Under the pieces are notes generated by a model, which was not told the DNA's origin, ran no database searches, and saw only the letters and a program-made list of their open reading frames with translations. Below, piece after piece: positions 8,259-41,449 of a stretch of 64,000 nucleotides of DNA; within the stretch, counting starts at the first letter, position 1, and every line of letters begins with the position of its first letter. The translations under genes and the position numbers were made by a program. Source of the DNA: Nitrososphaerota archaeon (lineage in GTDB: Archaea; Thermoproteota; Nitrososphaeria; Nitrososphaerales; Nitrosopumilaceae); the NCBI GenBank assembly GCA_028867755.1, contig JAGWFT010000001.1, positions 164,727 through 228,726 on the forward strand, read 5' to 3'.

Positions 8259-8282
8259 GGCTGCTAGTTTTAAAGTTAGTTC

Positions 8283-8327
8283 TTAATTGCCGGTGTATAT
8301 TATCATCAACTCTAGGCTAAATTTAGC
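8283..8327 (-). promoter_or_regulatory. cdvB promoter: GCTAAATTTAGC palindrome, TACACC, AATTAA TATA-like box
   Basis: Palindrome 8316-8327, TACACC 8292-8297 and AATTAA 8283-8288; same offsets from the start codon as at the second cdvB. Confidence 0.7.
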
Positions 8328-8362
8328 TCACAAAATAAATCTGCCATAATTAGTTTGAAAGT

Positions 8363-9118
8363 GTGGCAAGAATAGCAGTTTTTGATTCAGGTATTGGTTC
8401 GCTTTCCATAATAAAACCAATCCAAAAAAAAATCAAGTCAGAGATTATCTATTTTGCTGATCAGGATAATTTCCCATATGGCACAAAGTCACCTAGTGAA
8501 TTAAAAAAAATTATCAGGTTAACGATTAAGAAACTAGAGGAAAAATTTGAGCCAGATTTGATAGTGATGGCATCAAACACACCTTCACTTTTGCTAAATC
8601 ACAAAAAGCAATCAAAAATTTTGGGAGTATATCCACCATTAAATGATGCTGCAAAAAAAACAATTACAAATACAATAGCAATTCTTGCTACAAAATCAGT
8701 TGTTGAAAGTAAAGAATTACGTAACTATATCAAAAAACAAGTTCCTGCAGGGATCAAAGTTATTAAGATTAATGCGTTACCACTTGTAGATCTTGTAGAG
8801 TCTGGAGCCTTTCTAACAAAAAAGAAATTTTGCAAAAAAAAGATCAACTCAGTCCTACGTATTATTATAGACAAACAAATTGATGTTGTTACCTTATCCA
8901 GCACACATCTTCCATTTCTTCTACCAATGTTAAAGAAGATCTTTCCCAGTGTAGTATTTCTTGATCCAGCAGACTCTATAGCTAATAAGATTGCAATACT
9001 ATTAAATGAAAAAAAATCAAACACATGTAAATTAAAGATATTTGCATCAGGAGATACCAAGACATTTCAAAAAAAGCTGCGAAAACTAGGAATTAAAAAC
9101 AATGTACAACAGCTATGA
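8363..9118 (+). CDS. Glutamate/aspartate racemase-fold protein with both catalytic Cys replaced by Ser
   Basis: FDSGIGSL and NFPYGTKS are MurI motifs; MASNTPS and LSSTHLP align to ACNT and GCTH. Confidence 0.8.
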   Translation: MARIAVFDSGIGSLSIIKPIQKKIKSEIIYFADQDNFPYGTKSPSELKKIIRLTIKKLEEKFEPDLIVMASNTPSLLLNHKKQSKILGVYPPLNDAAKKTITNTIAILATKSVVESKELRNYIKKQVPAGIKVIKINALPLVDLVESGAFLTKKKFCKKKINSVLRIIIDKQIDVVTLSSTHLPFLLPMLKKIFPSVVFLDPADSIANKIAILLNEKKSNTCKLKIFASGDTKTFQKKLRKLGIKNNVQQL

Positions 9119-9880
9119 AATAACTTTGGCTTTTCTATATCCATGACTAAAAGTTTTGTCATATAGTCTAGAATATTCATAATGTTTCGGGTTTACAATT
9201 TCTCCGATTATTATGATTGCAGTCTTTGTGATTTTTTCATCTCTGATTTTTTTTGCAATGTTTTCCAGTGTACCTTTTATCACTTTTTCATCATTCCAGC
9301 TTGCTCTATACACAACTGCGACTGGAGTTGACTTTGAATAGCCTCCCTTGATGGTTTCTTTTACAATATCAGATATGAGATGAACGCTAAGATAGAATAT
9401 CATGGTGGCTTTGTGCTTTGCAAGTTCTGAGATCTTCTCTCTTGTTGGTACTTTTGTTCGTGATTCAGCCCTTGTTACAATAATAGTTTGAGTGACGCCA
9501 GGCAAAGTTAGCTCACAGCCTAACACTGCAGCAGATGCAAGAAATGAGGTTATTCCAGGTACAACCTCAAACTCTATTCCTTCTTTTTTGAGATTGTCAG
9601 TTTGTTCTCGTATTGCACCATAGATTGAAGGGTCACCATCATGCAATCTTACAACTAATTTTCCTTTTAGTGCATTATCGTGTAGAATCTTAAAAATATC
9701 TTCTCTTACTAGTTTTGCAGCATCATATAGTTCTGCTTTTTTACAAAGCTTGACTATCTCAGGCGGGATCAATGAACCCGAATATACAACAACATCGGCT
9801 TTTTGGATTAGTTTTTTGGCCTTGACAGTGATGAGTTCTGGGTCACCGGGACCGCAGCCTACAAAGTATACTTTATGCAC
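9113..9880 (-). CDS. cbiF: Precorrin-4 C11-methyltransferase
   Basis: GCGPGDPELIT, YSGSL, RLHDGDPSIYGAIREQ and LTLPGVTQTIIVTR motifs. Confidence 0.93.
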   Translation of the reverse strand: MHKVYFVGCGPGDPELITVKAKKLIQKADVVVYSGSLIPPEIVKLCKKAELYDAAKLVREDIFKILHDNALKGKLVVRLHDGDPSIYGAIREQTDNLKKEGIEFEVVPGITSFLASAAVLGCELTLPGVTQTIIVTRAESRTKVPTREKISELAKHKATMIFYLSVHLISDIVKETIKGGYSKSTPVAVVYRASWNDEKVIKGTLENIAKKIRDEKITKTAIIIIGEIVNPKHYEYSRLYDKTFSHGYRKAKVIS

Positions 9881-10595
9881 GTTTTACCACCATGATTGAA
9901 AAATACTTGCTAGTCAGAGTGTCCTTTGTGACATCGCCTAGTGTTAGTTTCTTTACAATCTCTTCGTTTGTTCCTACGTCTTGTGCTATTGCAAAAAGCG
10001 AGCTGTCAGGAAAGCCAGCTTCCTTGAGTAGTATAATGACTTGATCAAAATATCTGCCATCTTTTAGAAATATCATAGTGTCACAGTTCTTTGCTGTCTC
10101 TTTTACTCTAGAAAGATCATAACATGCAGGTATCACTGCAACTGTTTCATCCCCTTCTGCTATACTGATTCCTACTTTGGAAGCAAAAGCAAACATGGAT
10201 ACTATTCCAGGAATTACTGTTATCTTGATTTCTGGATATTTTGACTTGAGTTCGCGTTGCAAGTAAATCCACGTGCTATATAGCGACGGATCTCCTACTG
10301 TAAGATATACAACGTTTTTTCCATCCTTTACTTTACTAGCTATTATGCGTGCATTGGTTTCCCATGTGTTCTCTAAGGTCTCTCTGTCCTTTACCATAGG
10401 AAATACCAAGTTTATGATATCAGGTTTTTTGGATTTGTCAATCAGTGATGATATTATAGAATATGCAATACTTTCTTTGCCTTCCCTTGAGGTAGGACAC
10501 ATGATTACGTCAGCGCTTTGAATGGCTTTCACTGCCTTTACGGTAAGAAGATCTGGATCTCCAGGACCACAGCCAACACATGTCAATTCTGTCAT
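9873..10595 (-). CDS. cbiL: Precorrin-2 C20-methyltransferase
   Basis: GCGPGDPDLLTVKA, LVFPM, LTVGDPSLYSTW and IPGIVS motifs; adjacent to cbiF. Confidence 0.9.
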   Translation of the reverse strand: MTELTCVGCGPGDPDLLTVKAVKAIQSADVIMCPTSREGKESIAYSIISSLIDKSKKPDIINLVFPMVKDRETLENTWETNARIIASKVKDGKNVVYLTVGDPSLYSTWIYLQRELKSKYPEIKITVIPGIVSMFAFASKVGISIAEGDETVAVIPACYDLSRVKETAKNCDTMIFLKDGRYFDQVIILLKEAGFPDSSLFAIAQDVGTNEEIVKKLTLGDVTKDTLTSKYFSIMVVKRA

Positions 10596-10723
10596 TTATA
10601 GAAAAACCGCCCACAGTACCTAATTAAAAGTTAGATTTCGACACACATAGGGATGAAATGAAGTTATGATATTTTTTGGAATCGTTACTGGATATACAGA
10701 TTTTAATTTTTATGATGTTATGT

Positions 10724-12604
10724 TCAACTTAGATTGGCTGCATTTTCTGCATGTACCCACGCGTCTCTGTAGTCATATATCGCTCTATGTAATTGACCTC
10801 TATGTGTATCCATCTTTCCTTTTTCTAGACCGTTAACTGCAATGTGAATTTCTCCCTCGATCTTCTTTATTATTTTTTTATCTGCATGGTGCGACTTGAG
10901 ATCCATGTAATGTGTCATTGCTGCCTTAATCTCATTGTGAGCAAGTGATTTGTCTATTCCAACCAGTTTGTAGACAATTGTATTTGCTGCACTTGCAAAG
11001 GCGGATGATATTTGTTGTGTCTTGAGGTTAGCAAGATCAGCATCATTAACACTATCATCTGCATCCTTCATGTCATGGTCATGTGACGGAGGTGCTCCTA
11101 TCAGCTTTTCCAGTTCATCCACAGCACCAGCTTCTTCATTGAAAACTTTTCTTCCCGTATTACTATTTAATGTATTTCCGTCAGCATTCCACAGATTTTT
11201 TGAAATACTATTTTGTATATGTAATGCTGTGCTGTCAAGAATTTTTAGTGTAGATTTATCAGTTATTCCAGATTCTAGATTTGTAATATCATTTGCTAAA
11301 GAACCCTTCTTTGTCTGTAATGTATTTGGTATTGATACTGTAAGTTGTGATACGCCTGCACTTGCAAGGTGTGAGGAGTCACCGCTGTATGTAGCAGTAA
11401 TTGAGATTGGGCCTACGTTAGATGGAGTGTAAGAAGTAGCGCACGAACCTGTTGATAGAGTACATGTTGGAGGATTGAATGTTCCTAAAGCATCATTATC
11501 ACTGAATGTTATTGTTCCACCAAGCGTGGATGATGGTGAATTTGTATCCGTGACAGTAACAGTATATTTTATCGTTTGACCAAGTACAATAGAAGATGGA
11601 TTGGGTGATGCTGAGGTAGTTGTTGAATCTAGTGAATTTGATCCGTCGTTTATTACGGAAACTGTACCGTCATTTTGATTGGTAACAAAGACCTCGCCTT
11701 TTGCAGAATCATATGCTATATCAGTAGGATTATTTCCTACTGTGATTGTATTAGTTACTGAGTTTGATACGTCGTTTATTACGGAAACTGTACCGTCATT
11801 TGAATTGGCAACAAAGACCTCGCCTTTTGCAGAATCATATGCTATATCAGTAGGATTATTTCCTACTGTGATTGTATTAGTTACTGAGTTTGATACGTCG
11901 TTTATTACGGAAACTGTACCGTCACCTCCGTTTGGAACGAAAACCTCGCCTTTTGCAGAATCATATGCAATTTCACCAGGACTATTTCCTACTGTGATTG
12001 TATTAGTTACTGAGTTTGATACGTCGTTTATTACGGAAACTGTACCGTCACCTCCGTTTGTAACAAAGACCTCGCCTTTTGCAGAATCATATGCTATGCC
12101 AAAAGGCATGCTTCCTACTGTGATTGTATTAGTTACTGAGTTTGATACGTCGTTTATTACGGAAACTGTACCGTCATTTGAATTGACAACAAAGACCTCG
12201 CCTTTTGCAGAATCATATGCAATTTCACCAGGACTATTCCCTACTGTGATTGTATTAGTTACTGAGTTTGATACGTCGTTTATTACGGAAACTGTACCGT
12301 TACCTCCGTTTGGAACAAAGACCTCGCCTTTTGCAGAATCATATGCTATGCCAAAAGGAAAAGAGCCTACTGTGATTGTATTAGTTACTGAGTTTGATAC
12401 GTCGTTTATTACGGAAACTGTACCGTCATTTGAATTGGCAACAAAGACCTCGCCTTTTGCAGAATCATATACTGCACCAAAAGGCATACTTCCTACTGTG
12501 ATTGTAACAATAGGCGATGCCGCAAATGACTGATGTATGTCAATAAAAAGAAAACTAGATGCAACAAACAACACCAGAATAAAAATAGATTTAGAATGTA
12601 GCAT
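10724..12604 (-). CDS. Secreted YVTN-type 7-bladed beta-propeller protein with Ig-like (Big_3-like) domain and helical C-terminus
   Basis: Signal peptide; 7 x 42-aa repeats (ITVG..P..IAYDSAKGEVFV.N....TVSVIND); STTTSASPNPSSIVLGQTIKYTVTV Ig-like segment. Confidence 0.88.
   Translation of the reverse strand: MLHSKSIFILVLFVASSFLFIDIHQSFAASPIVTITVGSMPFGAVYDSAKGEVFVANSNDGTVSVINDVSNSVTNTITVGSFPFGIAYDSAKGEVFVPNGGNGTVSVINDVSNSVTNTITVGNSPGEIAYDSAKGEVFVVNSNDGTVSVINDVSNSVTNTITVGSMPFGIAYDSAKGEVFVTNGGDGTVSVINDVSNSVTNTITVGNSPGEIAYDSAKGEVFVPNGGDGTVSVINDVSNSVTNTITVGNNPTDIAYDSAKGEVFVANSNDGTVSVINDVSNSVTNTITVGNNPTDIAYDSAKGEVFVTNQNDGTVSVINDGSNSLDSTTTSASPNPSSIVLGQTIKYTVTVTDTNSPSSTLGGTITFSDNDALGTFNPPTCTLSTGSCATSYTPSNVGPISITATYSGDSSHLASAGVSQLTVSIPNTLQTKKGSLANDITNLESGITDKSTLKILDSTALHIQNSISKNLWNADGNTLNSNTGRKVFNEEAGAVDELEKLIGAPPSHDHDMKDADDSVNDADLANLKTQQISSAFASAANTIVYKLVGIDKSLAHNEIKAAMTHYMDLKSHHADKKIIKKIEGEIHIAVNGLEKGKMDTHRGQLHRAIYDYRDAWVHAENAANLS
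11641..12520. repeat. 126-bp near-identical tandem repeat x7
   Basis: gtcgtttattacggaaactgtaccgt recurs at 11645, 11771, 11897, 12023, 12149, 12275 and 12401. Confidence 0.95.
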
Positions 12605-12898
12605 CTATGTCACAATTTTCCAATTAGCACAATGTGACAAACAATAATACGAAATGAAAAATGATCTGTTCATTGGTTTTCTAGGATCTGTTCCAGGCAT
12701 GAGATATAAAAACCTTGAAAAAGTTTTTTCTGTTACACAATTAAAAATCAAATTTTGATTATTTCAGAATTTAACAATACAGATTATGTGATTCAGTAAT
12801 TTGTTGCTACACAAATAAAAAAATAGATCTCCTTTTTCTTATATTGTTAATTCATATTTCCAGTATTTGGAGAATAGCAAATTATTTTAGATAAATCA

Positions 12899-13489
12899 CT
12901 ATATTTTTGTTGCAGATATTATGGTGACTGGATTTCTAGCAAGCATCATTGTACCAGTAGATGTCTTGCGACTTTTTGATATTGTAACCTGAGTAATGTC
13001 AACAGACGAAAACTTGAGTTTTTCCATAACTGAAAGCACGGAATAAAGAGTCTCAATCAATATAGTACCAATTACTATACGTCCTCCTTGTTTCAGCTTA
13101 CCTTCACAGAGTTTTAGTATTTCAGATGTCTCCCCACTTGTTCCTCCTATGAAAATGGTATCAGCTAAAGGGAGCTCTGAAATTTTTTCCAATGCATTTC
13201 CCAGAATTACTGTAACATTTGAGACCCCAAATTTATCCAAGTTCTTCTTTGTGAGTTCTACTGCTTTTGGATCAAAGTCAACTGCAAAAATTTTCCCTGA
13301 CAGACCTATTTGATAGGCTGCCTCTACAGATACAGATCCACTACCACATCCTATATCATAGACTGTTTGGCTTTCAGAGAGTCTGCCTTTACTAATTTGT
13401 ACTACACGTATCTCTTCTTTTGTAATTGGTACTTCTTCTATTCTCTCAAATAGCTCATCTGGAATACCAAAAGTTCGGTGTTTCCACAT
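12899..13489 (-). CDS. cbiT: Precorrin-6B C15-methyltransferase (decarboxylating)
   Basis: GIPDELF..PITKEEIR, DIGCGSGSVSVE, FIGG and ARNPV motifs. Confidence 0.92.
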   Translation of the reverse strand: MWKHRTFGIPDELFERIEEVPITKEEIRVVQISKGRLSESQTVYDIGCGSGSVSVEAAYQIGLSGKIFAVDFDPKAVELTKKNLDKFGVSNVTVILGNALEKISELPLADTIFIGGTSGETSEILKLCEGKLKQGGRIVIGTILIETLYSVLSVMEKLKFSSVDITQVTISKSRKTSTGTMMLARNPVTIISATKI

Positions 13490-13666
13490 CCGACTTTATA
13501 AAATCCTATTTGATATTTAGTGGTACCTAATGGGTTCTGTCAGATCTACAGTTGATCATATCATATCGAGACTAACTTGTTTCCATAGGCTCCAAGGATT
13601 AATGGCTGTAAGTTCTCCACGTTCCTGTTCATCGCGGTTCTATTCCCGCAGATTGGGCAGAACCAC

Positions 13667-14110
13667 TTAATGTACAGTCATGATACCGCTGATATCAGAG
13701 TGTATGAGTGTATTTATTAGAATCCAGCTGAATATGAACATCAGAAAATAGCTTCCAATACCAGTCATGATAAGTTTTCTCTTATCAGACAACGGCAATG
13801 GAACTCTTAGTGCCTTTGCTATTCCATATGATATAATAAATAACACAATTACAATTCCCAATCCTGTATATGCCCTTTCGTGAGCATGCAACATGGTATT
13901 TCCAATTATAGCAGAAATAGTTCCGGCTAGTATGCCCAAGCCTACACGTAACCAAAATACCTTGTCAAGGCCTCTCTTTATCTTGGATTCATCAGTATCT
14001 GTCTTAGGTACCTCTGGAGGCATGTCCTTTGCAGAATTGTCATTTGGCTCTGGTTTCTTATCGTTATCTTTGCCCTTTGGATGTCTTACCAAGTAAATTT
14101 TCAAACTCAC
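13667..14110 (-). CDS. Small membrane protein (3 TM), possibly EMC6-like archaeal family
   Basis: DKVFWLRVGLGILAG and GIGSYFLMFIFSWIL hydrophobic segments; family assignment from memory only. Confidence 0.6.
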   Translation of the reverse strand: MSLKIYLVRHPKGKDNDKKPEPNDNSAKDMPPEVPKTDTDESKIKRGLDKVFWLRVGLGILAGTISAIIGNTMLHAHERAYTGLGIVIVLFIISYGIAKALRVPLPLSDKRKLIMTGIGSYFLMFIFSWILINTLIHSDISGIMTVH

Positions 14111-14188
14111 TCAGTTAGTTCCCGTTTAAAATGTTTGGCTAAAACCCCAAATAGGAAGAGTATAATTTTGGCGTGATAGCATCTCATT

Positions 14189-16117
14189 ATGACGCTTGCA
14201 GGAATTGAACTGTGTTATCTGGTAAACGAGATAGTCAGTAAGACAAAGGATTACTATGTTAGTAACATTTACGGTATAACTCGTAATAGTCTTCTGTTCA
14301 AACTACATCACCCTGAAAAACCAGATCTCTTGCTCATGTTTTCTACATTTGGACTTTGGATTACTAATGTAAAGATAAGTCAGATGGAGGAGAATAGACT
14401 AGTGAAGAGACTTAGAAATGATCTTCTTCGCGCCAGAATTATTAACGTTGAACAAATTGGCAGTGAAAGAATAGTCCAAGTTACATTTAGCGGTTTCAAC
14501 CAAGAATTTGTTCTGATTGGGGAGTTTTTTGGTGATGGTAACATACTTTTGTGCAATAAAGAGATGAAGATCTTGTCGCTTCTTCATTCAATTGATGTAA
14601 GACATAGAAGGTTGGGAGTCGGCCTAACATATGTTCCTCCACCGTCAAGTGGTCTTGATATTTTTAAAGTAACACAAAAAGATCTTGAAGAGATTAGATC
14701 TGCATCTACTGCAACGATCAGGTGGGTTGGCAGGACTCTTGGATTACCCTCCAAATATGCCGAGGAGATAACAAAGAGATCCAATGTAGATAGCCAGAGA
14801 TTGGGAAATACATTGTCTAGTGAAGAAGTTACCAAGATATATCAAGCAACAAGGGAGATAATTGAAAAAGTTGTCAATGGAAAACATGATCCATGCATTG
14901 TTCGCGATGACAAGGGAGCAGATGTGCATCCCATACCGCTTGGAGATGTTTCACAAAAAAATGTTAGTAAAGTATCTAGTTTTATGGAAGGATTGGATTC
15001 ATTGTTTTCTGAAAATCTTCTAGAACAGGGAAAGACATCACAAACTGATACCGTAAGCCAAAAGATAATTGAAATGGAGCATAAACTTGAGGAACAAAAC
15101 AAGGCAATATCATTAGTTAAACAAAGAGCCGAATCAATATCCAAGGTTGCCAAAGCTCTTTTTGGTTTGGCATCAGTTGGAGTTACATCTATTGAGGATT
15201 CAAGAGTTCCATCACTATTGCAAGAACACAATTCCTCTCTGATAAGAGAAAGTGGCATACTAATGATAAATGTCGAGGAAGATAAAGTGAAGATCAACCC
15301 AGAATCATCAATTCAAGCCATAGCCTCTATCTTGTTTAACGAATCAAAACGGCAATTAAAAGCAATTGAGACAATAGGGTCAGAAAAGATCAAGACAGAA
15401 AAAAACTTGGATGCATTCAGAAAACAGGCCATCATTACACAAAATTCTATTGTTTTTGCAATACAGAAAAAGAGAGAATGGTATGAAAGATACAGATGGT
15501 TTTTCACTTCAGATGGACTTTTAGCAATTGGGGGACGAGATGCATCTTCCAATTCTTCGGTAATAAGAAAACATCTAGGCAAAGATGACAGAGTCTTTCA
15601 CGCAGAAATAGTAGGATCACCATTTTTTATCCTAAAGGATAGTGAAGATAACATTGCATCAAGCATAACTGAAGTGGCACAAGCCACAGTCTGTTTTAGC
15701 AGGGCTTGGAGAGAAGGACTATACGGATTAAATGCCTACTGGGTAAAACCAGATCAGATAAAGATGGGAGCACCCACGGGTCAATTTCTTGCAAAGGGAG
15801 CATTTCCAATAGAAGGTACTAGAAACTTTGTTCAAGTTTCAAACTTGCAACTAGCCATAGGGTTGTATCAAAAAGATGACAGTTATACGATCATGTGCGG
15901 CCCACTACCAGCAGTGAAGATAAGATGCTTGTTTTATGTAATTATAGAACCATCAGGAACTGACATGACGGATCTTGCAAAAAAGATAAGATTAGAATTT
16001 CTAAAACTTGCAGAAAATCAAGATGTTGTTAAAGCATTTAATATTGATGATTTTATACGTGCACTTCCTGCTGGCGATAGCCACATAGTAGAATCAGGTA
16101 TTGGTCAAGGATATTGA
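14189..16117 (+). CDS. rqcH: Ribosome quality control NFACT protein (Rqc2/RqcH/NEMF)
   Basis: ERIVQV..LIGEFFGDGNILL; WYERYRWFFTSDGLLAIGGRDASSN NFACT-R motif. Confidence 0.92.
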   Translation: MTLAGIELCYLVNEIVSKTKDYYVSNIYGITRNSLLFKLHHPEKPDLLLMFSTFGLWITNVKISQMEENRLVKRLRNDLLRARIINVEQIGSERIVQVTFSGFNQEFVLIGEFFGDGNILLCNKEMKILSLLHSIDVRHRRLGVGLTYVPPPSSGLDIFKVTQKDLEEIRSASTATIRWVGRTLGLPSKYAEEITKRSNVDSQRLGNTLSSEEVTKIYQATREIIEKVVNGKHDPCIVRDDKGADVHPIPLGDVSQKNVSKVSSFMEGLDSLFSENLLEQGKTSQTDTVSQKIIEMEHKLEEQNKAISLVKQRAESISKVAKALFGLASVGVTSIEDSRVPSLLQEHNSSLIRESGILMINVEEDKVKINPESSIQAIASILFNESKRQLKAIETIGSEKIKTEKNLDAFRKQAIITQNSIVFAIQKKREWYERYRWFFTSDGLLAIGGRDASSNSSVIRKHLGKDDRVFHAEIVGSPFFILKDSEDNIASSITEVAQATVCFSRAWREGLYGLNAYWVKPDQIKMGAPTGQFLAKGAFPIEGTRNFVQVSNLQLAIGLYQKDDSYTIMCGPLPAVKIRCLFYVIIEPSGTDMTDLAKKIRLEFLKLAENQDVVKAFNIDDFIRALPAGDSHIVESGIGQGY

Positions 16118-18733: not shown

Positions 18734-18766
18734 TATTACGATCTTGTTATAACAGATATAATACTT

Positions 18767-20120: not shown

Positions 20121-20132
20121 TTCAATAAAAAT

Positions 20133-29608: not shown

Positions 29609-29674
29609 ATTAAACTTTAGAGTTGAAAGAAAATAGAAACCGAGTTATACTGCACCTCGTACAATGGAACTGCT

Positions 29675-30502: not shown

Positions 30503-30540
30503 TCAAACATTTTATTTGGTCAAAAGTTATTGAATTCAAA

Positions 30541-31215: not shown

Positions 31216-31216
31216 C

Positions 31217-31480: not shown

Positions 31481-31507
31481 TTGGACGTTATTATTTAATT
31501 TTTCAGA

Positions 31508-32781: not shown

Positions 32782-32846
32782 GCATTCAATCTCTGTTTAT
32801 TCAATATTTATTTAATTGGATCCCATGATGAACAATTTTTACTAAA

Positions 32847-35243
32847 ATGATTTATCTGATTAACGATAAGAATCACACGATGAGAAAAGTAATTCTTCTG
32901 CTTGTATTTGCAGTTTCAACAATTTTTGTTACTTATCAACAGGCAAATGCCATAACCATAACTGCAACTCCCCAGACTCTTAATTTTGGACCAAATGACT
33001 GGATATCTGTAAGTCTTAAAATTCAAGGATATACTGGTGGTGTAATATCGTGGGTAGCACATAGACCAGATAATTCCACAATATCAGGCAACCTTACTCA
33101 AGTTAAAGGAGATGGATCTACTACACATCAAATAATAAGAAATGCATTTGATAATTATTTTGGCAATTGGTCAATTGATTACACATACAACGGTGTAAAA
33201 CAAATAGTTAATTTCAAAGTAACTCCAATTGTGTTAACTATCTTTACTGACAAGTATCTCTATTATGAGCCTGATATCATGAAAATCAATATCACTACTT
33301 CATATTATGTACCTGTTGCAGCTCATGCAGAATTTATTCATCTAAATTTTTATGATCAAAAAGGAAAACTTCTAAATGATATAATACCTATTGACATTAG
33401 AGCTTTTCAGCCCAATGTAATTTACAATTTTGCCATGGGGGGACTGGCACACTATCATCCACCAGGACTATACAAACTAAAGGTGCAATACTATAACACA
33501 GTAGTTGAAATACCATTTCTTTTAGGTGAATATTCAACACTTATGCAGGTGTCATCACAGACAGACAAAAATACTTACCAAGTTGGCGATGCAGTTAACA
33601 TGGAATTATTAATCACAAGAGTCACACAATCTAATGGTACACTGAAAATAACTGATCCTTTGGGAGATGTTACCGTTCATCAATTTCATGTAAATTCTGT
33701 ACACACTTCTTTAATCTTAGACGATATGACAAAGCATATTGGTACGTATAGTTATGTGGTTCAATATGCAGGCATCAGTAATTCAGGTTCGTTCAATGTT
33801 ATTGCAAATCCGACACCACTACCAAATATAGAACTTGATGTATCTCCGGACAAACTAAACTACAGGCCAGGAGAGATCATTCATGTAAAAATTCACATTT
33901 CACAGATAATTACAAATTCAACAAGCCTTTGGGTTGTTGATCCAAATGGGGTAGAATATCCAAGATTGTCTTTACCAATAACAACAACTGATACAATTCT
34001 ACCACACAAGATAAGTAAAAATTACATGACTGGACAGTGGACGCTCTACATAGATTATGATAGAATAATCAGGGATGTTCCATTCTATGTTAAAGGATCT
34101 CCAGTTAATGATAATGATATACTTAATATCAATCAGTTTAGTGTGCCTACTTTTGTTTCAAATTTTGGTGCAACGTCTTTTAATGCTCCAACTGGAATAG
34201 CTATAGACTCAGATAATGATGTTTATGTTGTAGATTCTGGTAATTCTCAAGTAAAAAAATTTGATTCTGAAGGAAAGTTATTGTTATCTTGGGGAACTGT
34301 CGGTTCGGAAAATGGTCAATTTATTCATCCAAACGGTATCTTTGTTGGAAAGAAGTATGTCTATGTAGCTGATACTGGAAATGCCAGAATTCAAATGTTC
34401 GACAAAGAAGGCAATTTCATTTATGGATGGGGAAGCTATGGTGATGCACATGGCATGTTACATACTCCAGTAGGATTGGCTACAGATAGTAGTGGAGATC
34501 TGTTTGTTGCAGATTCTGGAAGAAACACTATTCAGATATTTAATACACAGGATGTATATGCCAATGAGATAAAGTCGTTACTAACAGAAGGGGCAAATTT
34601 CACATCGCTTAATGGGATAGCCTTCGATTCAAATGATTATTTTTATGTATCTTCTTCTGATAACAAAATACTAAAGTTCTCAGACATTGGAGATTTCATA
34701 AACTTTTTTGGTTCCAATGGAACTGAAAATAGTAGATTTATCAATCCAACTGCGATAGCTATAGATTCTAAAGATAACTTTTACGTTGCTGATACTAACA
34801 ACCACAGAATTCAGAAATTTGATCCTTATGGAAATTTTATTCTAAGTTGGGGTTCTGAAGGAACCTCTACTGGTCAATTTGAGGAACCAGTAGGTCTTGC
34901 AACCGATTCTTTAGGAAATATCTACATAGTAGACAAGAAAAATGACAATATACAAAAATTTTCCTTATATGGAATAAGTAGTAAGACTGTACCAAATTGG
35001 GTTAGAGAGAGGGCATTATGGTGGTCTGAAGGTGCACTAGGTAAAGACGATTTTGCATTGGTTGTAAAGTTCATGATAAATCAAGGCTTGATAGATGCTA
35101 CTGCCATGAATGAAACATCATCAATACATGTTCCACAATGGGTGAAAAAAGAAGCTAATTGGTGGGCACTTGGTCAGATTGATGATGAATCTTTTGCCAA
35201 TAGCCTTCAATATCTTATTTCTATTGGAATCCTGAAAGTTTAG
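32847..35243 (+). CDS. Secreted protein: MG2-like Ig domains + NHL beta-propeller + C-terminal thaumarchaeal 'PxWxK..WW' module
   Basis: TDKxxYxxG segments x3; NHL repeats (PTGIAIDS..VYVVDSGN..VKKFD); VPNWVRERALWW and VPQWVKKEANWW. Confidence 0.88.
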   Translation: MIYLINDKNHTMRKVILLLVFAVSTIFVTYQQANAITITATPQTLNFGPNDWISVSLKIQGYTGGVISWVAHRPDNSTISGNLTQVKGDGSTTHQIIRNAFDNYFGNWSIDYTYNGVKQIVNFKVTPIVLTIFTDKYLYYEPDIMKINITTSYYVPVAAHAEFIHLNFYDQKGKLLNDIIPIDIRAFQPNVIYNFAMGGLAHYHPPGLYKLKVQYYNTVVEIPFLLGEYSTLMQVSSQTDKNTYQVGDAVNMELLITRVTQSNGTLKITDPLGDVTVHQFHVNSVHTSLILDDMTKHIGTYSYVVQYAGISNSGSFNVIANPTPLPNIELDVSPDKLNYRPGEIIHVKIHISQIITNSTSLWVVDPNGVEYPRLSLPITTTDTILPHKISKNYMTGQWTLYIDYDRIIRDVPFYVKGSPVNDNDILNINQFSVPTFVSNFGATSFNAPTGIAIDSDNDVYVVDSGNSQVKKFDSEGKLLLSWGTVGSENGQFIHPNGIFVGKKYVYVADTGNARIQMFDKEGNFIYGWGSYGDAHGMLHTPVGLATDSSGDLFVADSGRNTIQIFNTQDVYANEIKSLLTEGANFTSLNGIAFDSNDYFYVSSSDNKILKFSDIGDFINFFGSNGTENSRFINPTAIAIDSKDNFYVADTNNHRIQKFDPYGNFILSWGSEGTSTGQFEEPVGLATDSLGNIYIVDKKNDNIQKFSLYGISSKTVPNWVRERALWWSEGALGKDDFALVVKFMINQGLIDATAMNETSSIHVPQWVKKEANWWALGQIDDESFANSLQYLISIGILKV

Positions 35244-35437
35244 GAAATAATTCGTGGCATCTTTCTGGCAAATAATCCTGCAATAAATATTAAAACTCCA
35301 AGAATTCCTATAAGGCTTCCAATAAACTGGACAGTATCACCTAGATCTGGTTGAGTGGGAGCATATAGTACAGCCAGTACCGCACCTATTACAATCATTG
35401 GAATACCAATACCTATTGAGATTTGTTTTGAAACCAT
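35240..35437 (-). CDS. Small 2-TM membrane protein
   Basis: Two hydrophobic helices, basic C-terminus. Confidence 0.7.
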   Translation of the reverse strand: MVSKQISIGIGIPMIVIGAVLAVLYAPTQPDLGDTVQFIGSLIGILGVLIFIAGLFARKMPRIIS

Positions 35438-35537
35438 CTGTTATATCATCCCAGTAAAAATCTATATGAATTTTATGAAATCCTTGCTCATCTAGAGGAT
35501 GTAATTAGTCATCATCCCAATTGCAAATGATGTTCTG

Positions 35538-36716
35538 CTAGTTTTGGTGTTGGTGTCCTTTTTCAGGTTTTGTACGTTCATCATGACTTTTTCCATGATC
35601 ATTATGTCCTGTATTTTGTTCTAATGCTGTAGTATTTGCATGTGGAGTAAGAGGTGGAGGTGTTGGCTGGATAAATGGAATGGTGTTGGATGCAGTTGAG
35701 TTGGTAGTTGGTGGTGTAGTTGGTGGTGTAGTAGGTGGTGTAGTAGGTGGTGTAGTAGGTGGTGTAGTAGGTGGTGTAGTAGGTGGTGTAGTAGGTGGTG
35801 TAGTAGGTGATGGAGATACAACAGTGGAGTTGGTAGATGGAGATACCGTAGATTTCTCAGCTAACTGTGCTTTTTGATATGCTTGAATTTTCTTTATCAG
35901 ATTTATTGCCTGATCAATCTTACCTTCTGATGCTAATTGCTTGAGCTCCGTAACCATATCTTTAGGATTGCTTGCTACAGTAACATTAGAATTATTTGCA
36001 ATAGGTGAGATGGTAGACGAATTGATAGGCATAGTATTTTGAGTCACATTAAGTTTGACAGTATTATTGGATTGGCTTTCATTGTTGAGTTGTGCAATTT
36101 GTTTTTCAGTAAAATCTTTTGCTCTCTCAGAAATTCTTTCTTTTGCAATATTGGTAAGAGAATTATGTGTCTCAGCAACAAAGTCATTAGCACTCTGTAT
36201 TTGTTTTGAGGCATCATCAAGATTTCCAGAATTAAGATCTTGGTTTGTATTCTGGATCATTTCATCAAAGCTTGTAAAATTAATATTTGCGTTGTTTTGT
36301 AATGCAATGGATTTTAGAAGACTAATCATGTTTTCTAGCTTAACTATTTCTCCTCGTAGTTGCATTGTCTCCGTTTTTTGTTGATCATTTGGTGCTGTTG
36401 CATTAAGCGAGTTTATCTTATCATTTGTCTGCTTGAAGAACTTCATGGCAGCAAGGAAGTGTTGTTTAGCCGAATTAACATCCTGTTCAGATACTGCTTG
36501 GGCTAGCTGGTCGGTTTCATTGGAACCTTGATTATAGAGCTGGCTAATCTCATCAGGTACATTGCTGATTTGCGATATTGTTATGCTGAGGTTGTCTCTG
36601 GCTTGAGTAGCAATATTGAGTAAAGTATCTAATTGCGGATCAGCAAAGGACTGACTTGGGATACCAAATATCATGGTTCCAACCAGTATCAAAAGAAATG
36701 ATGATAGTGTCTTCAT
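35538..36716 (-). CDS. Secreted alpha-helical protein with Pro/Thr (PTTP) repeat and His-rich tail
   Basis: Signal peptide; helical bundles; (PTTP)n linker; C-terminus HNDHGKSHDE..HQHQN. Confidence 0.85.
   Translation of the reverse strand: MKTLSSFLLILVGTMIFGIPSQSFADPQLDTLLNIATQARDNLSITISQISNVPDEISQLYNQGSNETDQLAQAVSEQDVNSAKQHFLAAMKFFKQTNDKINSLNATAPNDQQKTETMQLRGEIVKLENMISLLKSIALQNNANINFTSFDEMIQNTNQDLNSGNLDDASKQIQSANDFVAETHNSLTNIAKERISERAKDFTEKQIAQLNNESQSNNTVKLNVTQNTMPINSSTISPIANNSNVTVASNPKDMVTELKQLASEGKIDQAINLIKKIQAYQKAQLAEKSTVSPSTNSTVVSPSPTTPPTTPPTTPPTTPPTTPPTTPPTTPPTTPPTTNSTASNTIPFIQPTPPPLTPHANTTALEQNTGHNDHGKSHDERTKPEKGHQHQN
35710..35805. repeat. 12-bp tandem repeat x8 (ggtggtgtagta)
   Basis: Read directly; encodes PTTP repeats on the minus strand. 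Confidence 0.95.
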
Positions 36717-37939
36717 TCCTGACCCTCCTCAACTTTTTGCAATTTTATGAGATTTTGCTGGTCTACTTTTTCTATTTCAACAATTCCTTCTCGTTCTAAT
36801 CGCTTTACTGCTCTCCATGTTGTAGTACGTGGTAGAAGGAATTTCTTACGAAGTTCACTTTCAAAAACTCTTCCGCCCTTTTCAGAGATAAATATTACAA
36901 TGTCTTTGTCTTCCTGGCGTAGTTCTGGTTTGAGTCTAAATATTGTTTCTTTATCTGGAGGCACATAGTTACCCTGTGGAACCTGCGGTACAGATATCTC
37001 CTTTGTTGTTCTAGATCTTTTCAATATAATAAACATGGCAGTTATTGCTGCTGCAGAACCACCTGCAGCTAAAATTGGAATAGTATAATTATTATTTCCA
37101 GCTGTAATTATATCAGTATTATTGCTAGCTCCAGTTTGTTTTGTAGAAAGAGCTGTTTGTTGTTCCTGAATAGCTAAGTTCTTGGCATCATTAGCCAATG
37201 CTTCTGCATCAGAATATCTGCCTTCATTAAAAGCTGTATTTGCTTCATCAAGTTTTTCAGAAGCAAGAGGAGTCGTTATGCCTTCAGAGTTTACTGTACT
37301 TGTGAAATCTTTAGCATGTTGAATTGCTAAAGTTGCAGTCTGGCTTGTGCCTAATACACCAAATATGTAACTAATATCTACAGAACCACTTGGGAATGAA
37401 ATAAGTGATTGACCATTCACAACCTGCAAGTCTGATGGAGTTGTACTCATACCTACAATTACAGTATTTGCAGGCAAGAGTACAGAATAATCAACAAGGG
37501 AATTTACATGAAATGCCCAAGTCTTTCCACTTTTGGATACAAGATCAGGAGTGTCATAGTCAACTTTGATTGTAGAAGCCCCGAGAGTTTCGACATCCAC
37601 ATTATTTGTGTTCATTTTGCTTGAAAGTAATGTTCCATTCTGATCTTGTACAACAAAATTATCGGTAGTGTTACCATACAAGCCAAGCGTGAAATCAGGA
37701 GACTGTGAATCAACATCGGTTTGATAGAAGACATGTGTAGTACCATCAGTGTAAATAGTAAACTCAAGAACCTTAGACGAGCTTAATGCATATTGAATAC
37801 AGGAAGAAAAGGCAAGTAAGAAAAAACAGACAACAAATACTGGTGCCTTTAGCATAGATGTCAGAATATAGGTAATCCTTACAAAAAGCATTGCTTCTGC
37901 TTGCGCTTCTATTGGGATCGCCAGAGTTTTCTGGTACAT
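36713..37939 (-). CDS. Membrane-anchored protein: extracellular domain, TM helix, cytoplasmic winged-HTH (COG2512-like)
   Basis: TM IPILAAGGSAAAITAMFIIL; C-terminus GGRVFESELRKKFLLPRTTTWRAVKRLEREGIVEIEK. True start probably downstream of 37939. Confidence 0.8.
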   Translation of the reverse strand: MYQKTLAIPIEAQAEAMLFVRITYILTSMLKAPVFVVCFFLLAFSSCIQYALSSSKVLEFTIYTDGTTHVFYQTDVDSQSPDFTLGLYGNTTDNFVVQDQNGTLLSSKMNTNNVDVETLGASTIKVDYDTPDLVSKSGKTWAFHVNSLVDYSVLLPANTVIVGMSTTPSDLQVVNGQSLISFPSGSVDISYIFGVLGTSQTATLAIQHAKDFTSTVNSEGITTPLASEKLDEANTAFNEGRYSDAEALANDAKNLAIQEQQTALSTKQTGASNNTDIITAGNNNYTIPILAAGGSAAAITAMFIILKRSRTTKEISVPQVPQGNYVPPDKETIFRLKPELRQEDKDIVIFISEKGGRVFESELRKKFLLPRTTTWRAVKRLEREGIVEIEKVDQQNLIKLQKVEEGQE

Positions 37940-37942
37940 TCT

Positions 37943-38230
37943 TTAGTACCTTAGGTTAAGTCCTTGGACAACACCCTGAAATCTCTGAAATTCCTGAAAG
38001 AACCTGATCCCTTTCTCTGTAATCCTAAATAGTCGATTTCTGTCAGCCTTCATAGATTCTACCAGGCCTGCATCTATCAGCTTCTGGCATTTCTCCAAGA
38101 CTGCATAATGAGAGAGGTTTGCTCTTCTGGAAATAGCAGAGACTATTACTCCCTGCATCCCACCATCCATGGTGACACCCAAGATATCAGCAATGATGCC
38201 CATTTCGGATCTGTATTGTTGTTTTGACAT
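37943..38230 (-). CDS. Small winged-HTH transcription regulator
   Basis: YRSEMGIIADIL..ISRRANLSH..LIDAGLV..FRITEKG. Confidence 0.88.
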   Translation of the reverse strand: MSKQQYRSEMGIIADILGVTMDGGMQGVIVSAISRRANLSHYAVLEKCQKLIDAGLVESMKADRNRLFRITEKGIRFFQEFQRFQGVVQGLNLRY

Positions 38231-38277
38231 GGCATCTTATGGAGTGGATGTTTTATCAGGGACAGCATGAAACATCA

Positions 38278-38319
38278 TAGCGGAACGCCTAGCGGAACAG
38301 GTATTTCATACCTTGAAAT
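38278..38319. promoter_or_regulatory. Candidate operator: TAGCGGAAC direct repeat x2 plus ATTTCA-N5-TGAAAT palindrome
   Basis: Direct repeats at 38278-38286 and 38290-38298; inverted repeat at 38303-38319; lies in the divergent wHTH/TRAM intergenic region. Confidence 0.45.
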
Positions 38320-38426
38320 GGTCTAAAATGAGATATTTACGAAGCGGGAGAGAATATTGTCTTGACAATTATTTGAACAGATTTTATAGGGCACTATGAC
38401 AGGTCTAATAACAAGGAGGTGCAACG

Positions 38427-38759
38427 GTGAGCTTTAACGACTCTGGTTTTGGTGAAAGTCCAAGACAAGGATACAGTGGAAATAGAGGTTATGGTGGCGG
38501 AGGTCGAAGATTCGGCGGCGGTGGACGACGCTTTGATGATAATAGACCAAAGCCAGTAGAAACTGGTAAAGAGTACGATGTATCCGTAACAGAAATCAGT
38601 AGGAAAGGGGACGGTATTGCAAGAGTAGAAGGTTTTGTCATATTCGTCAAAGGTGGACAAGTAGGCCAGAACGCAAAAGTAAAGATTACGCAAGTTGGCG
38701 GACGCTTTGCTACTGCTGATGTAGTAGGCGAAGGAACCCCACAACCAGCAACAGAATAA
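38427..38759 (+). CDS. Single-TRAM-domain RNA-binding protein with Gly/Arg-rich N-terminus
   Basis: PKPVETGKEYDVSVTEISRKGDGIARVEGFVIFV; SD-like AGGAGGTG upstream of the GTG start. Confidence 0.92.
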   Translation: MSFNDSGFGESPRQGYSGNRGYGGGGRRFGGGGRRFDDNRPKPVETGKEYDVSVTEISRKGDGIARVEGFVIFVKGGQVGQNAKVKITQVGGRFATADVVGEGTPQPATE

Positions 38760-38791
38760 AACTGGTTGCCTAAAAGGCGTTTTCTGATTTC

Positions 38792-39172
38792 TTACAAATT
38801 ACTCGTTTTCTTTTTTATCTTCTCTATAATTTCCAGCTTTCTTGTTATATCCATATTTGGCTCCATGGTAACATAGACTGTTTTGTGTTTTGGATAAACA
38901 ACAATTTGTGTAACCTTTTGTCGTTCTATATGCACATAATTGACTGGACCTAGACTCTTATCAAACTGCTTTCGGATTTTTCTTCTTATGGCTACCTGTT
39001 TACAAAAGTGCTCTTCCTCTTTTTGTGATTTAAGAGATGTTTTACCTTCTTTCATTATGGCTTCAGATATGTTACCTTTGAGATCTATAATAGCAGCAAA
39101 TCTCATCATTGGATCTAGTTCTAATATATCTTCCACAATTGGAATGAATTCTATCTTACGATTACTCTTCAA
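38792..39172 (-). CDS. Thaumarchaeal conserved hypothetical protein (roadblock/PAS-like small domain)
   Basis: MRFAAIIDLKGNI..FDKSLGPVNYVHIER pattern. Confidence 0.75.
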   Translation of the reverse strand: MKSNRKIEFIPIVEDILELDPMMRFAAIIDLKGNISEAIMKEGKTSLKSQKEEEHFCKQVAIRRKIRKQFDKSLGPVNYVHIERQKVTQIVVYPKHKTVYVTMEPNMDITRKLEIIEKIKKKTSNL

Positions 39173-39327
39173 TTAATGAAAAGCAAACCTTGATTCTAAA
39201 TATATCTTGGTTTCAAGTAACTTTGATCGCTAAATATACCTAAAGGGAGTGTTCTGATAGAAAACACGGACACTTCTTTCATCTATTAACTTTTTATATA
39301 TTACACATTACAGTAGTCATAAGCAAT

Positions 39328-39915
39328 ATGTTTGAAAAGTTCAGAAAGAAAAAGGACGAATTTAAGCCGGATTCCACTGAAAAGGAGGAAGAAAGTGTTA
39401 CATCTGAAACCATACAATATCAGCCTCAAGAGATCAGACCGGAGGAAACTGATGTTATTGAGCAATCTAGAACCAAACCTACTGAACAAGTAAAAATATC
39501 AGAACCTATGCAACAAAGAGCAATGAGTGCATCTGGAGAAGATATAGGAATAAGAGCCCTAATGGACAAACGAACTAAGCTTGAGGAAGCAATTGATTAT
39601 GTAGGATTAATGATTAAGAATTTGAAAGATAAGAGAACGAATCTGGAAAAGAGCATAGAAGACGAATCTGTGGACATTAAGAATCTTAAGGAGAAACTGA
39701 TTAAGGTTGGTCAGTATCTTGAAGAGGAAAAACAGGGAATAAAGACATTACAACAAAAGAGAGGCGAGGTTGAAAGAGAAGCAGATGATGTAGCTGCAAT
39801 TATCAACAACCTGCGTGAAAAATTATTGAATATAGATAGGATAGTAAATGAAGAAGGCAGTAAGATAGAGAAATTTAAAGATACTAGACCCAAGTCTGAA
39901 TCTTCGTTCGGCTAG
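39328..39915 (+). CDS. Coiled-coil hypothetical protein
   Basis: Long heptad-rich C-terminal ~110 aa. Confidence 0.8.
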   Translation: MFEKFRKKKDEFKPDSTEKEEESVTSETIQYQPQEIRPEETDVIEQSRTKPTEQVKISEPMQQRAMSASGEDIGIRALMDKRTKLEEAIDYVGLMIKNLKDKRTNLEKSIEDESVDIKNLKEKLIKVGQYLEEEKQGIKTLQQKRGEVEREADDVAAIINNLREKLLNIDRIVNEEGSKIEKFKDTRPKSESSFG

Positions 39916-40289
39916 AAAGTAAAGCCTTCTTTTAGAATACTGTTAAGATTTTCCTTTATTTCCTCTTCGGATGACAGTGAGTCAAGATCTCTAATTAATA
40001 CCTCAGTTGCAAGACATTGATTCTTTGAGAATTGATAATAACAATCTAGTTTTTCTTGATAGGTTTTTGCATTGTAATAAATGCTCCAAAAGTTTTCTGT
40101 AGAGTGCTGTACGTAAAGTAAAAATTTTCTAATGGTCGTCTCAATTTTAGAGGAAGGATTGTCTTTCATTAGTCCAATTAGAATCTGCTCTAACTTACTG
40201 TCCAAGTTTGATTCATAAATCAATTGGTAAATGCCCCCGTCTTTTGTCACGCTTGCTTTATGTGGCTGTATCATAAAAGCTTTCATCAA
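39912..40289 (-). CDS. Hypothetical protein
   Basis: 125-aa ORF, 4-nt overlap with the convergent gene. Confidence 0.7.
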   Translation of the reverse strand: MMKAFMIQPHKASVTKDGGIYQLIYESNLDSKLEQILIGLMKDNPSSKIETTIRKFLLYVQHSTENFWSIYYNAKTYQEKLDCYYQFSKNQCLATEVLIRDLDSLSSEEEIKENLNSILKEGFTF

Positions 40290-40402
40290 TAATTTTCAAA
40301 AAATCATTCATTTACACATAATATATTTAGCTATCTTAAAAAAATTAAAATTTCAAATATGAAATTAGTCATAATGCTTAAATAATTTTCATGCGTATTA
40401 AT

Positions 40403-40597
40403 GGTCCCTGTCAGAGGACAACTCCTAAGACAGGAATCATGCAGCAAACATGCGTGATACGGTCAAGGGTAAATCCTGCCGTAGAAGATCCAGCGGAGAA
40501 ATCTCAAGGAAGTGGTGACAATGGTCATCATGTCTTGGAATGCATGTATTCCCCCGCATGACGTGTGTGAACCACACGTCTGCATGATAGAATTTTT
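40403..40597 (+). ncRNA. Candidate multi-helix structured ncRNA (family not recognised)
   Basis: TATA CTTAAATA at 40377-40384; 5' hairpin CCTGTC/GACAGG; closing helix ATCATGCAG 40436-44 / CTGCATGAT 40580-88; nested CATGCG/CGCATG, TACGG/CCGTA, ACGTGTG/CACACGT; T-tract at 40593-40597. Confidence 0.6.
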
Positions 40598-40661
40598 CCA
40601 ATTACAATAAACTAAGCTATGTAAATTATTCAAATAGATTGTACAATAATAGCAGTTTAGT

Positions 40662-40732
40662 GATTGTCTGAAAGAATGTAGCCTCAGCGATCAGAGAAAT
40701 TGATGCGGTACATTCTTCCTAGTCAGATTATC
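40662..40732 (+). other. Long imperfect hairpin downstream of cdvB (candidate RNA element)
   Basis: AAGAATGTA 40672-80 / TACATTCTT 40709-17; TCTGA/TCAGA; apical ATCA-GAGAAAT-TGAT. Confidence 0.4.
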
Positions 40733-40741
40733 CAGGACAGT

Positions 40742-41380
40742 CTAGATGTAGCGGGCAGAAGATGATTGACTGCTGGCTGGCATGGAAGGCAGTTTGTCGT
40801 TGACTGCTGCCTCTGCAACTGCTGCAGCTTCTTGCATAATCTTCTCTGATTCTTCGTCTGAAACTCCAGAATCAATTCCAAAGTCGCCACCATGGAATGT
40901 ATCTGTCATTAATCCACCTAGCATTTCAGTCATTCCTGACAACTCGCGATCTGCTTCTGGCATAAACTGTACCAGAGATGATCTTAGGCTCTTCATCAAG
41001 CCAATTGTTGGCATGATTGTGACAAGTGTATCTCCCAGATCGTGGAAGGTACTGAGTCTGAGCACTATTTGTTCTAGTGCAATTCTAGCATTTCCGAGAA
41101 GCTTGGTAACTTTCCTAACTTCGGCTAATTCTTTTGATAAAACCTTACTAGCGGTAGTATCATGTTGTTGAGTGGCAACTACAATTCTTTTGAATAACTT
41201 TTCATCTTTTTGTTTTAATTTTGTAAGCATTCCATCAAGTTTTCCAGTTTGGACCTGGAGTCTTTTTACTGCCTGTTCCATCCTTGGCTTCAGAGGACCT
41301 TTTGGTCTTATAGTGTCGTTAAATCTTTCACCAATGCTTGGTGTCTGTGGTTTTTGCCAATTGTTAGTAAAGTTTGTCAT
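40742..41380 (-). CDS. cdvB: ESCRT-III/Snf7 family CdvB paralog
   Basis: Same Snf7 core as 7617-8258 (KPRMEQAVKRLQVQTGKLD..LSKELAEVRKVTKLLGNARIALEQ). Confidence 0.88.
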   Translation of the reverse strand: MTNFTNNWQKPQTPSIGERFNDTIRPKGPLKPRMEQAVKRLQVQTGKLDGMLTKLKQKDEKLFKRIVVATQQHDTTASKVLSKELAEVRKVTKLLGNARIALEQIVLRLSTFHDLGDTLVTIMPTIGLMKSLRSSLVQFMPEADRELSGMTEMLGGLMTDTFHGGDFGIDSGVSDEESEKIMQEAAAVAEAAVNDKLPSMPASSQSSSARYI

Positions 41381-41404
41381 GGATACGACTGATAAAATCT
41401 GTTA

Positions 41405-41449
41405 TTAATTTCAGGTGTAAAATGTGGTTCACCGTATGCTAAATTTAGC
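41405..41449 (-). promoter_or_regulatory. cdvB promoter: GCTAAATTTAGC palindrome, TACACC, AATTAA
   Basis: Palindrome 41438-41449, TACACC 41414-41419 and AATTAA 41405-41410; offsets identical to those at 8283-8327. Confidence 0.7.

Follow-up and report, generated by a model that had tools for sequence, protein, structure and literature searches.

A conserved promoter module shared by the cdvB1 and cdvB2 genes of ammonia-oxidising archaea

Two paralogous ESCRT-III genes of a Nitrososphaerota archaeon (family Nitrosopumilaceae), referred to here as cdvB1 type and cdvB2 type, are preceded by one and the same promoter module. Both lie in the stretch under analysis, a 64,000-nucleotide window of assembly GCA_028867755.1 (contig JAGWFT010000001.1, positions 164,727 to 228,726, forward strand). 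Spanning about 55 bp, the module stands at a fixed distance from the start codon in both sets of orthologues across 27 genera of the family. It is a real and deeply conserved promoter element, specific to this gene pair and retained far beyond chance. The module appears to be undescribed: our literature search found no paper on thaumarchaeal cdv promoters or motifs.

Geometry, conservation and uniqueness of the module

The genome examined is a 1,636,759-bp assembly, 99.95% complete, with a GC content of 0.38, in which archaeal amoA, cdvA and cdvC are all found. The cdvB1-type gene (7617-8258, minus strand, ATG at window position 8258) encodes a 213-residue protein that matches the Snf7 profile end to end with 17.4 bits. 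The product of the cdvB2-type gene (40742-41380, minus strand, ATG at 41380) has 212 residues and matches profile positions 2-168 of 171 with 21.5 bits. Both scores are below the 27.3 cut-off despite the near full-length profile match. The two genes are 33 kb apart and their proteins share 59% identity with each other and 40% with the product of a third cdvB, found elsewhere on the contig and called canonical cdvB hereafter. This pattern agrees with that of Nitrosopumilus maritimus, where Nmar_0029 and Nmar_0061 are reported to be ~50% identical and to share ~30% identity with Nmar_0816 (PMC3684127). In the protein tree the cdvB1 and cdvB2 orthologues are reciprocally monophyletic sister types (support 0.957 and 0.961), and the clade that unites them (support 0.984) leaves out the homologues of other families. 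This topology places the duplication before the radiation of the family, of which 27 genera were sampled.

Read in gene orientation, both promoters have the arrangement GCTAAATTTAGC (-69 to -58), 18 nucleotides, TACACC (-39 to -34), 3 nucleotides, AATTAA (-30 to -25), 24 nucleotides and ATG. The 12-mer occupies window positions 8316-8327 and 41438-41449, TACACC positions 8292-8297 and 41414-41419, and AATTAA positions 8283-8288 and 41405-41410, all on the minus strand. The first-pass annotation had placed these boxes exactly before both start codons. Its statement that the intervening bases have diverged holds broadly, with 8 identities in 18 positions at -57 to -40; the stretch from -24 to -1 still keeps 14 of 24. 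Identity reaches 18/20 at -77 to -58 and 13/15 at -39 to -25, and beyond -78 it drops to an about random 7/33.

Comparison of orthologues extends these blocks into an ordered series of TTTGTTAGCTAAATTTAG, GTTGAT or GTGAAC, ACACC and ATTAAGA. The two blocks noticed at first would be parts of a single dedicated cis-regulatory module. The distal box (-76 to -59) is TTTGTGAGCTAAATTTAG before cdvB1 (8317-8334, containing the palindrome at 8316-8327), with a box matrix score of 26.6, and TTTGTTAGCTAAATTTAG before cdvB2 (41439-41456, containing the palindrome at 41438-41449), with 28.4, the maximum possible. The middle box (-52 to -47) is GTTGAT before cdvB1 (8305-8310), a form kept in cdvB1 orthologues, and GTGAAC before cdvB2 (41427-41432), where the orthologue consensus is ctGT.AAcC. 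The ACACC box (-38 to -34) lies at 8292-8296 and 41414-41418. The last box (-29 to -23) reads ATTAAGA before cdvB1 (8281-8287), near-invariant in 30 orthologues, and ATTAATA before cdvB2 (41403-41409). All these boxes are on the minus strand. If the mRNAs are leaderless, the last two fall at the positions of the TFB recognition element (BRE) and of the TATA box, respectively.

Conservation was followed in 30 cdvB1 and 30 cdvB2 orthologous promoters taken from 41 genomes sampled across the 27 genera. The cdvB1 consensus is TTTGTtAGCTAAATTTAgtCtAAaGTTGATctaAATAtACACC...cATTAAGA and that of cdvB2 is TtGTtAg..AAATTTa......GT.AAcC....TTcACAcc...AATTAAgaA. The pattern AAATTT-N22-ACAC-N5-NTTAA-N24-start is found exactly in 24/30 cdvB1 and 12/30 cdvB2 promoters, and in 27/30 and 23/30 when relaxed. 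Mean information per column is 1.2-1.5 bits in the cdvB1 module and 0.6-0.9 bits in that of cdvB2, compared to 0.14-0.20 beyond -80; the distal box of the cdvB1 orthologues alone averages 1.47 bits versus 0.20 in the flank. Distant genera keep just TTGTTAG and AAATTT of the cdvB2 distal box. Spacing is rigid: AATTT and ACAC are 27 nucleotides apart in 27/27 cdvB1 and 19/22 cdvB2 promoters, ACAC is found at -38 in 25 of 27 cdvB1 promoters and is followed by TTAA at a spacing of 10 nucleotides in 27/27, and ATTAA starts 29 nucleotides before the start codon in 28/30 cdvB1 and 21/29 cdvB2 promoters. Such persistence indicates that the elements of the module are under selection.

The exact 12-mer is present at the two cdvB sites only, with ~0.18 copies per genome expected from base composition; its absence from the rest of the window, seen in the first-pass annotation, is borne out and extends to the whole assembly. 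TACACC-N3-AATTAA is likewise confined genome-wide to the two cdvB promoters. Three genomic sites differ from the 12-mer by one mismatch (window 27258, C24:537221 and C24:604645), all in coding sequence, and a distal-box-like site at window 57864 was discarded as it also falls within coding sequence. With two mismatches the window gives 6 matches for 3.98 expected, which is not significant, uniqueness being informative for exact or full-module matches only. Trained on 57 promoters of orthologues, with this genome excluded, a matrix of 62 columns scores 72.9 and 64.7 at the two promoters and never exceeds 8 in the rest of the genome. The best site of the distal-box matrix outside the two promoters scores 15.0, versus 26.6 and 28.4, and the matrices of the sub-boxes are equally exclusive. 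ATTAAG is found at -32 to -27 of 13 more candidate starts, none of which has ACAC. Searched with up to one mismatch in the 41 genomes, the 15-mer GTTAGCTAAATTTAG gives 44 matches, versus 4 for its reversed control, and all but seven of them are ~60-75 bp upstream of cdvB1 or cdvB2. The seven extra matches lack the ACACC and ATTAAGA boxes; five belong to one 4.3-Mb genome of the family (G014), two of these within an identical repeat. The motif is kept in orthologous promoters of 27 genera and is essentially unique, the opposite of the loss or genome-wide abundance that the first-pass annotation had named as arguments against its own proposal.

The two genes are paralogs with 59% identical products, and their shared blocks might be neutral leftovers of the duplication, traces of gene conversion, or a structured RNA element. 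We find these explanations hardly credible. The first two are excluded because the duplication is older than the family's radiation and the boxes have since been held in two independent lineages, while the flanks were randomised (7/33 identities; 0.14-0.20 bits per column). As for structured RNA, Rfam gives only chance-level matches outside the module, and folding compared with shuffled sequence reveals no excess stability (z-scores 0.58, -1.73, 0.18 and -1.09).

The palindrome and the promoters of other division genes

The first-pass annotation proposed the 12-bp palindrome as a candidate operator of a thaumarchaeal division regulon, which in explicit form would be a dyad-symmetric operator for a dimeric regulator of a wider set of division genes. 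This proposal is supported by the perfect palindrome, which both promoters have and the rest of the genome lacks, by the 10-bp core CTAAATTTAG retained in most cdvB1 promoters, and by a related TTAGCTAAAAT box in cdvA promoters. Orthologues speak against it. Among 33 cdvB1-type and 29 cdvB2-type promoters the exact 12-mer is found in 9 and 6, respectively, and the commonest cdvB1 form of the region is GCTAAATTTAGT. Just 10/33 and 13/29 promoters have a complementary outer pair (1/12). Among the cdvB2 orthologues, 18/29 are complementary at pair 2/11 and 14/29 at pair 3/10, AAATTT being the one well-kept part of the palindrome. No compensatory palindrome is present in these two sets of promoters, in which the sole perfect palindromes are the exact 12-mer. 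Since the dyad is not conserved and conservation runs leftward past it, asymmetrically, into TTTGTTAG, the unit under selection is an asymmetric distal box, and the perfect dyad is the state of this genus and a few others. The palindrome would accordingly be read as a lineage-specific form of the distal box and not as the selected unit. Together with the lack of any other genomic match to the distal-box matrix and with the different promoters of other ESCRT-III genes described next, this makes the operator proposal improbable.

The canonical cdvB gene (Nmar_0816 type) has a conserved promoter of its own, GTAAC-N10-GTCAC-N4-GTTACA-N10-GTGACA followed by TTTAAAAC. This four-site GTNAC array, with two sites in each orientation, lies outside the window at C24:985347-985376, upstream of TTTAAAAC. 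A search of the genome for three-site GTNAC arrays with two mirror-image regular expressions gives two intergenic matches only, at canonical cdvB and at a divergent ESCRT-III-like gene of 187 codons. The latter (L108:356-919, with the array at L108:270-300; together C24:907645-908291) heads a cluster that ends in cdvC. Its product has no Pfam match and shares 25% identity with CdvB1 over 97 residues (pairwise E = 9e-12). The array of this fourth ESCRT-III-like gene is also conserved in the family, in many genera. A recurrent third class of matches to the GTNAC pattern was set aside, being coding sequence of the TFB motif VTEVTIRNRY. In genome G014 (contig C2, near 42358, 246722, 349397 and 356175), tandem GTGACTATT-like repeats create many spurious matches to the array.

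In the other sampled families of the class, cdvB homologues have upstream sites of the TGTCACC/GGTGACA (GTNAC) type, with the four-site array most distinct in three of these families. Within the present family, a few cdvB2 promoters still have TGTCACC or TGTCAGC in place of TTGTTAGC. Parsimony on the protein tree makes the GTNAC array ancestral and the cdvB1/cdvB2 module a derived replacement acquired on their stem. The module would then have arisen on the stem of the two types in this family of ammonia oxidisers by displacing an older GTNAC-array promoter, and purifying selection would have kept it in both paralogs.

The cdvA gene has two elements in common with the module, TTAGCTAAA(A/T)T and the ACAC box. 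AGCTAAAWT is found 40-100 nucleotides upstream of five genes in this genome, three of which are cdvA, cdvB1 and cdvB2; this sharing is suggestive, not proof, of a relation. The likely start of cdvA is the sixth codon of its longest open reading frame (ORF; MSKED..), which would make its mRNA leaderless. About 80 bp upstream of cdvA (within L168:1386-1516) are kept family-wide, including TTAGCTAAAAT, TCTTACCAAAAC and TTGTTAACAC. Upstream of cdvC the likeness to the module lies in a coding region, and it was downgraded for that reason: the AATTTA-N-ACAC stretch is the conserved C-terminal coding sequence of the preceding 186-codon ORF (L108:929-1489). Its conservation may be driven by the protein. 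The C-terminal peptide of this ORF, ..SINLTN..VHT..DYL.., is encoded by a sequence that mimics AATTTA-N-ACACC, and it could be a candidate CdvC-binding tail. The regions upstream of cdvA, cdvC and other cdvB genes, where the first-pass annotation advised a search for the palindrome, thus offer sub-boxes at cdvA, a coding-region likeness at cdvC and GTNAC sites at canonical cdvB. An operator common to all division genes finds no place in these data either, as genome scans with the matrices pick the two cdvB promoters only and canonical cdvB and the fourth ESCRT-III-like gene use GTNAC arrays.

A more ambitious interpretation is a two-tier promoter code of ESCRT-III genes in ammonia-oxidising archaea. 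The ancestral four-site GTNAC array would serve canonical cdvB, the fourth ESCRT-III-like gene and the cdvB homologues of other sampled families, and the derived module, with sub-boxes at cdvA, would serve cdvB1 and cdvB2. The two tiers would be expressed in successive waves, as are CdvB and then CdvB1/B2 in Sulfolobus, and a dedicated TFB/TBP paralog would recognise the derived module, perhaps the product of the TFB gene that in many genera is divergent beside cdvB2. We consider this scheme doubtful as a whole.

Position of the TATA box and a model for the module

The assignment of core promoter elements depends on where transcription starts. A literature search for thaumarchaeal transcription-start maps yielded nothing usable, the supplements of Red Sea mdRNA-seq work being without a cdv entry. 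In this genome TATA-like hexamers and A/T runs peak at -35 to -26 from start codons, and promoter signals sit at about -36 to -25. First-in-frame GTG and TTG codons show the TATA peak at -34 to -27 as ATG does, with 28% and 15%, versus 2-6% at control offsets. Leaderless mRNAs dominate this genome, since the TATA signal peaks at -35 to -26 from start codons, GTG and TTG included, which also suggests that the organism commonly has leaderless mRNAs with starts other than AUG. The presence of non-ATG starts in 16/30 cdvB2 orthologues was considered as an objection to leaderless transcripts and dropped, given that GTG and TTG codons show the TATA peak too. Within this dominant promoter class, ATTAAGA (-29 to -23) coincides with the TATA position and ACACC with that of the BRE. 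The location that the first-pass annotation had given to TACACC, at the position of a BRE, is confirmed by this coincidence; ACACC may act as a non-canonical BRE and, as that annotation suggested, might select one TFB paralog.

The cdvA promoter adds to this reading. It has a canonical GGTTATAT at -30 to -23, with the ACAC box 12 nucleotides further upstream in 28/28 orthologues. ACAC is there at -38 to -40 from the leaderless start, the same distance as in cdvB1 and cdvB2. The cdvA geometry, the rigid spacing to the start codon and the genome-wide TATA position lead us to favour, tentatively and with a little less than even confidence, a leaderless promoter with a non-canonical core and an upstream factor site.

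Several observations weigh against this choice. Scored with the genome's own promoter matrix, ATTAAGA reaches 3.1 bits in cdvB2 and less than 3.2 in cdvB1, for a median best promoter score of 4.9, although this matrix, built around a BRE/TATA consensus AA..TTTAAAT, carries little information. TAAATTTA, within the palindrome, scores 4.2 in cdvB2, more than the 3.1 of ATTAAGA. TAAATTTA, an A/T-rich stretch around -10 and the C-A step in ACACC fit a textbook succession of TATA box, proximal element and initiator, followed by a 36-nucleotide leader. The cdvC unit AATTTA-N-ACAC, whose distance to the ATG varies between genera, also fits a TATA-to-start arrangement. On these grounds the palindrome core could be the TATA box, TTGTTAGC and TAAATTTA a BRE/TATA pair and the A/T-rich stretch before ACACC a proximal element. 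Transcription would then start at the C-A step in ACACC (-36/-38), and ATTAAGA would belong to a 36-nucleotide leader without Shine-Dalgarno sequence or be a downstream factor site. The AATTT-ACAC spacing places ACAC ~26-27 nucleotides past the centre of the A/T box (27/27 cdvB1 and 19/22 cdvB2 promoters). In cdvC the corresponding spacing is 28 nucleotides in 21/23 cases, with the ATG at a distance of -46 to -54 and a Shine-Dalgarno-like AGGTAAT following. The partial conservation at -24 to -1 (0.46-0.69 bits per column) is also in line with a leader.

The genome's promoter matrix was too weak an arbiter to choose between the boxes, and other features argue against a TATA box in the palindrome. 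It demands a leader of exactly 36 nucleotides in two paralogs across 27 genera, while that of cdvC varies, and it disagrees with the genome-wide promoter signal. In cdvA, ACAC lies upstream of a canonical TATA box and not at the start. The cdvB1 TATA/BRE would abut, at a distance of ~15 bp, the stretch in TATA/BRE position of the divergent racemase-like gene. TAAATTTA does not vary at positions where A/T swaps would be acceptable to TBP, and the cdvC likeness is part of the coding sequence of the preceding ORF. A TATA box in the palindrome is a serious possibility all the same, though we would not call it probable.

In either assignment at least one box is much more invariant than TBP or TFB would require, which implies a sequence-specific factor. 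From this layout we infer a transcription start, a type of binding factor and a timing of expression, as follows. The mRNAs of cdvB1 and cdvB2 would be leaderless like most transcripts of this organism, with ATTAAGA in place of the TATA box and ACACC in place of the BRE. Both elements being non-canonical and far more invariant than ordinary TATA and BRE sequences, the core promoter would be weak or specialised. Recruitment of the initiation complex to such a core would need a sequence-specific factor at the distal box; this could be an activator or a dedicated pair of TBP and TFB paralogs. Through the module, both sister ESCRT-III genes would follow one common transcriptional programme, different from that of canonical cdvB. 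We put this dependence of a leaderless promoter, with non-canonical elements in TATA and BRE positions, on a distal-box factor forward as our leading hypothesis, at somewhat short of an even chance.

Parallels in other archaea and neighbouring genes

The nearest functional parallel is the control of cdv genes in Sulfolobales, where the promoters of ESCRT-III division genes likewise have features of their own. The TFB paralog TFB2 of Sulfolobus co-activates cdvB1 and cdvB2 through promoters that differ in BRE-TATA spacing (bioRxiv 10.64898/2026.09.06.749720), and in Sulfolobales the small repressor aCcr1 binds AGTATTA (aCcr1-box or ccr-2 box) in cdv promoters (PMC9976892). Here too, genes of the cdvB1 and cdvB2 types have one special promoter in common, unlike canonical cdvB. 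This suggests that transcription, too, separates a template-ring CdvB from the constricting CdvB1/B2, as has recently been demonstrated in Sulfolobus. The motif sequences are however unrelated, and the organisms belong to another class. AGTATTA is found in 0/30 cdvB1 and 3/30 cdvB2 upstream regions.

The layout favoured here resembles that of activator-dependent archaeal promoters, which combine a weak or non-canonical BRE/TATA with a sequence-specific site immediately before it; examples are those of TFB-RF1 in Pyrococcus furiosus (PMC5937170) and, in Methanococcus maripaludis, the fla promoter with EarA (PMC5512572). It differs in that the distal box is ~37 bp upstream of the box in TATA position and in that the motif is new. 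Each half of the module can also be read as a canonical archaeal core promoter with BRE, TATA, proximal element and initiator, and the palindrome has a TATA-like A/T core. The boxes are nonetheless far more invariant than ordinary TATA and BRE elements of the same genome, and they extend over ~55 bp at two genes only.

A more tentative comparison is with archaeal boxes of the Lrp type, palindromes of 12-15 bp with an A/T-rich centre, located upstream of the promoter. The cdvB1 and cdvB2 promoters differ from them in that dyad symmetry is not conserved, and no Lrp-family gene was linked to the locus. No genetic system is known to exist for Thaumarchaeota. A module that is invariant family-wide at two division genes provides a defined DNA bait for finding regulators, and the GTNAC array of the other ESCRT-III genes is usable in the same way.

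A racemase-like gene (8363-9118, plus strand; Pfam Asp_Glu_race) is divergent from cdvB1 across an intergenic region of ~105 bp, and this adjacency is found in 28/30 loci. Its TATA-like AAAATAAAT abuts the cdvB1 distal box. At the other locus, a TFB gene (window 42047-42991, plus strand, its start being more likely the ATG at 42077) is divergent from cdvB2 at ~0.7 kb, and a TFB gene lies within 1.5 kb of cdvB2 in at least 13/30 loci. No gar1 gene is found beside this TFB gene, so that orthology to Sulfolobus TFB2 is not indicated, and a link between the two is speculation. Two ORFs without Pfam match, of 195 codons (39328-39915, plus strand) and 125 codons (39912-40289, minus strand), are ~0.5-1.4 kb downstream of cdvB2; charged residues abound in the 195-residue product, which on visual inspection resembles a coiled coil. 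An ORF immediately upstream of cdvB2 and co-oriented with it (window 41568-41678, minus strand) encodes a C2H2 zinc finger of 36 residues. It is found by tblastn in 19/30 loci, and its product is a candidate small nucleic-acid-binding partner of the cdvB2 locus.

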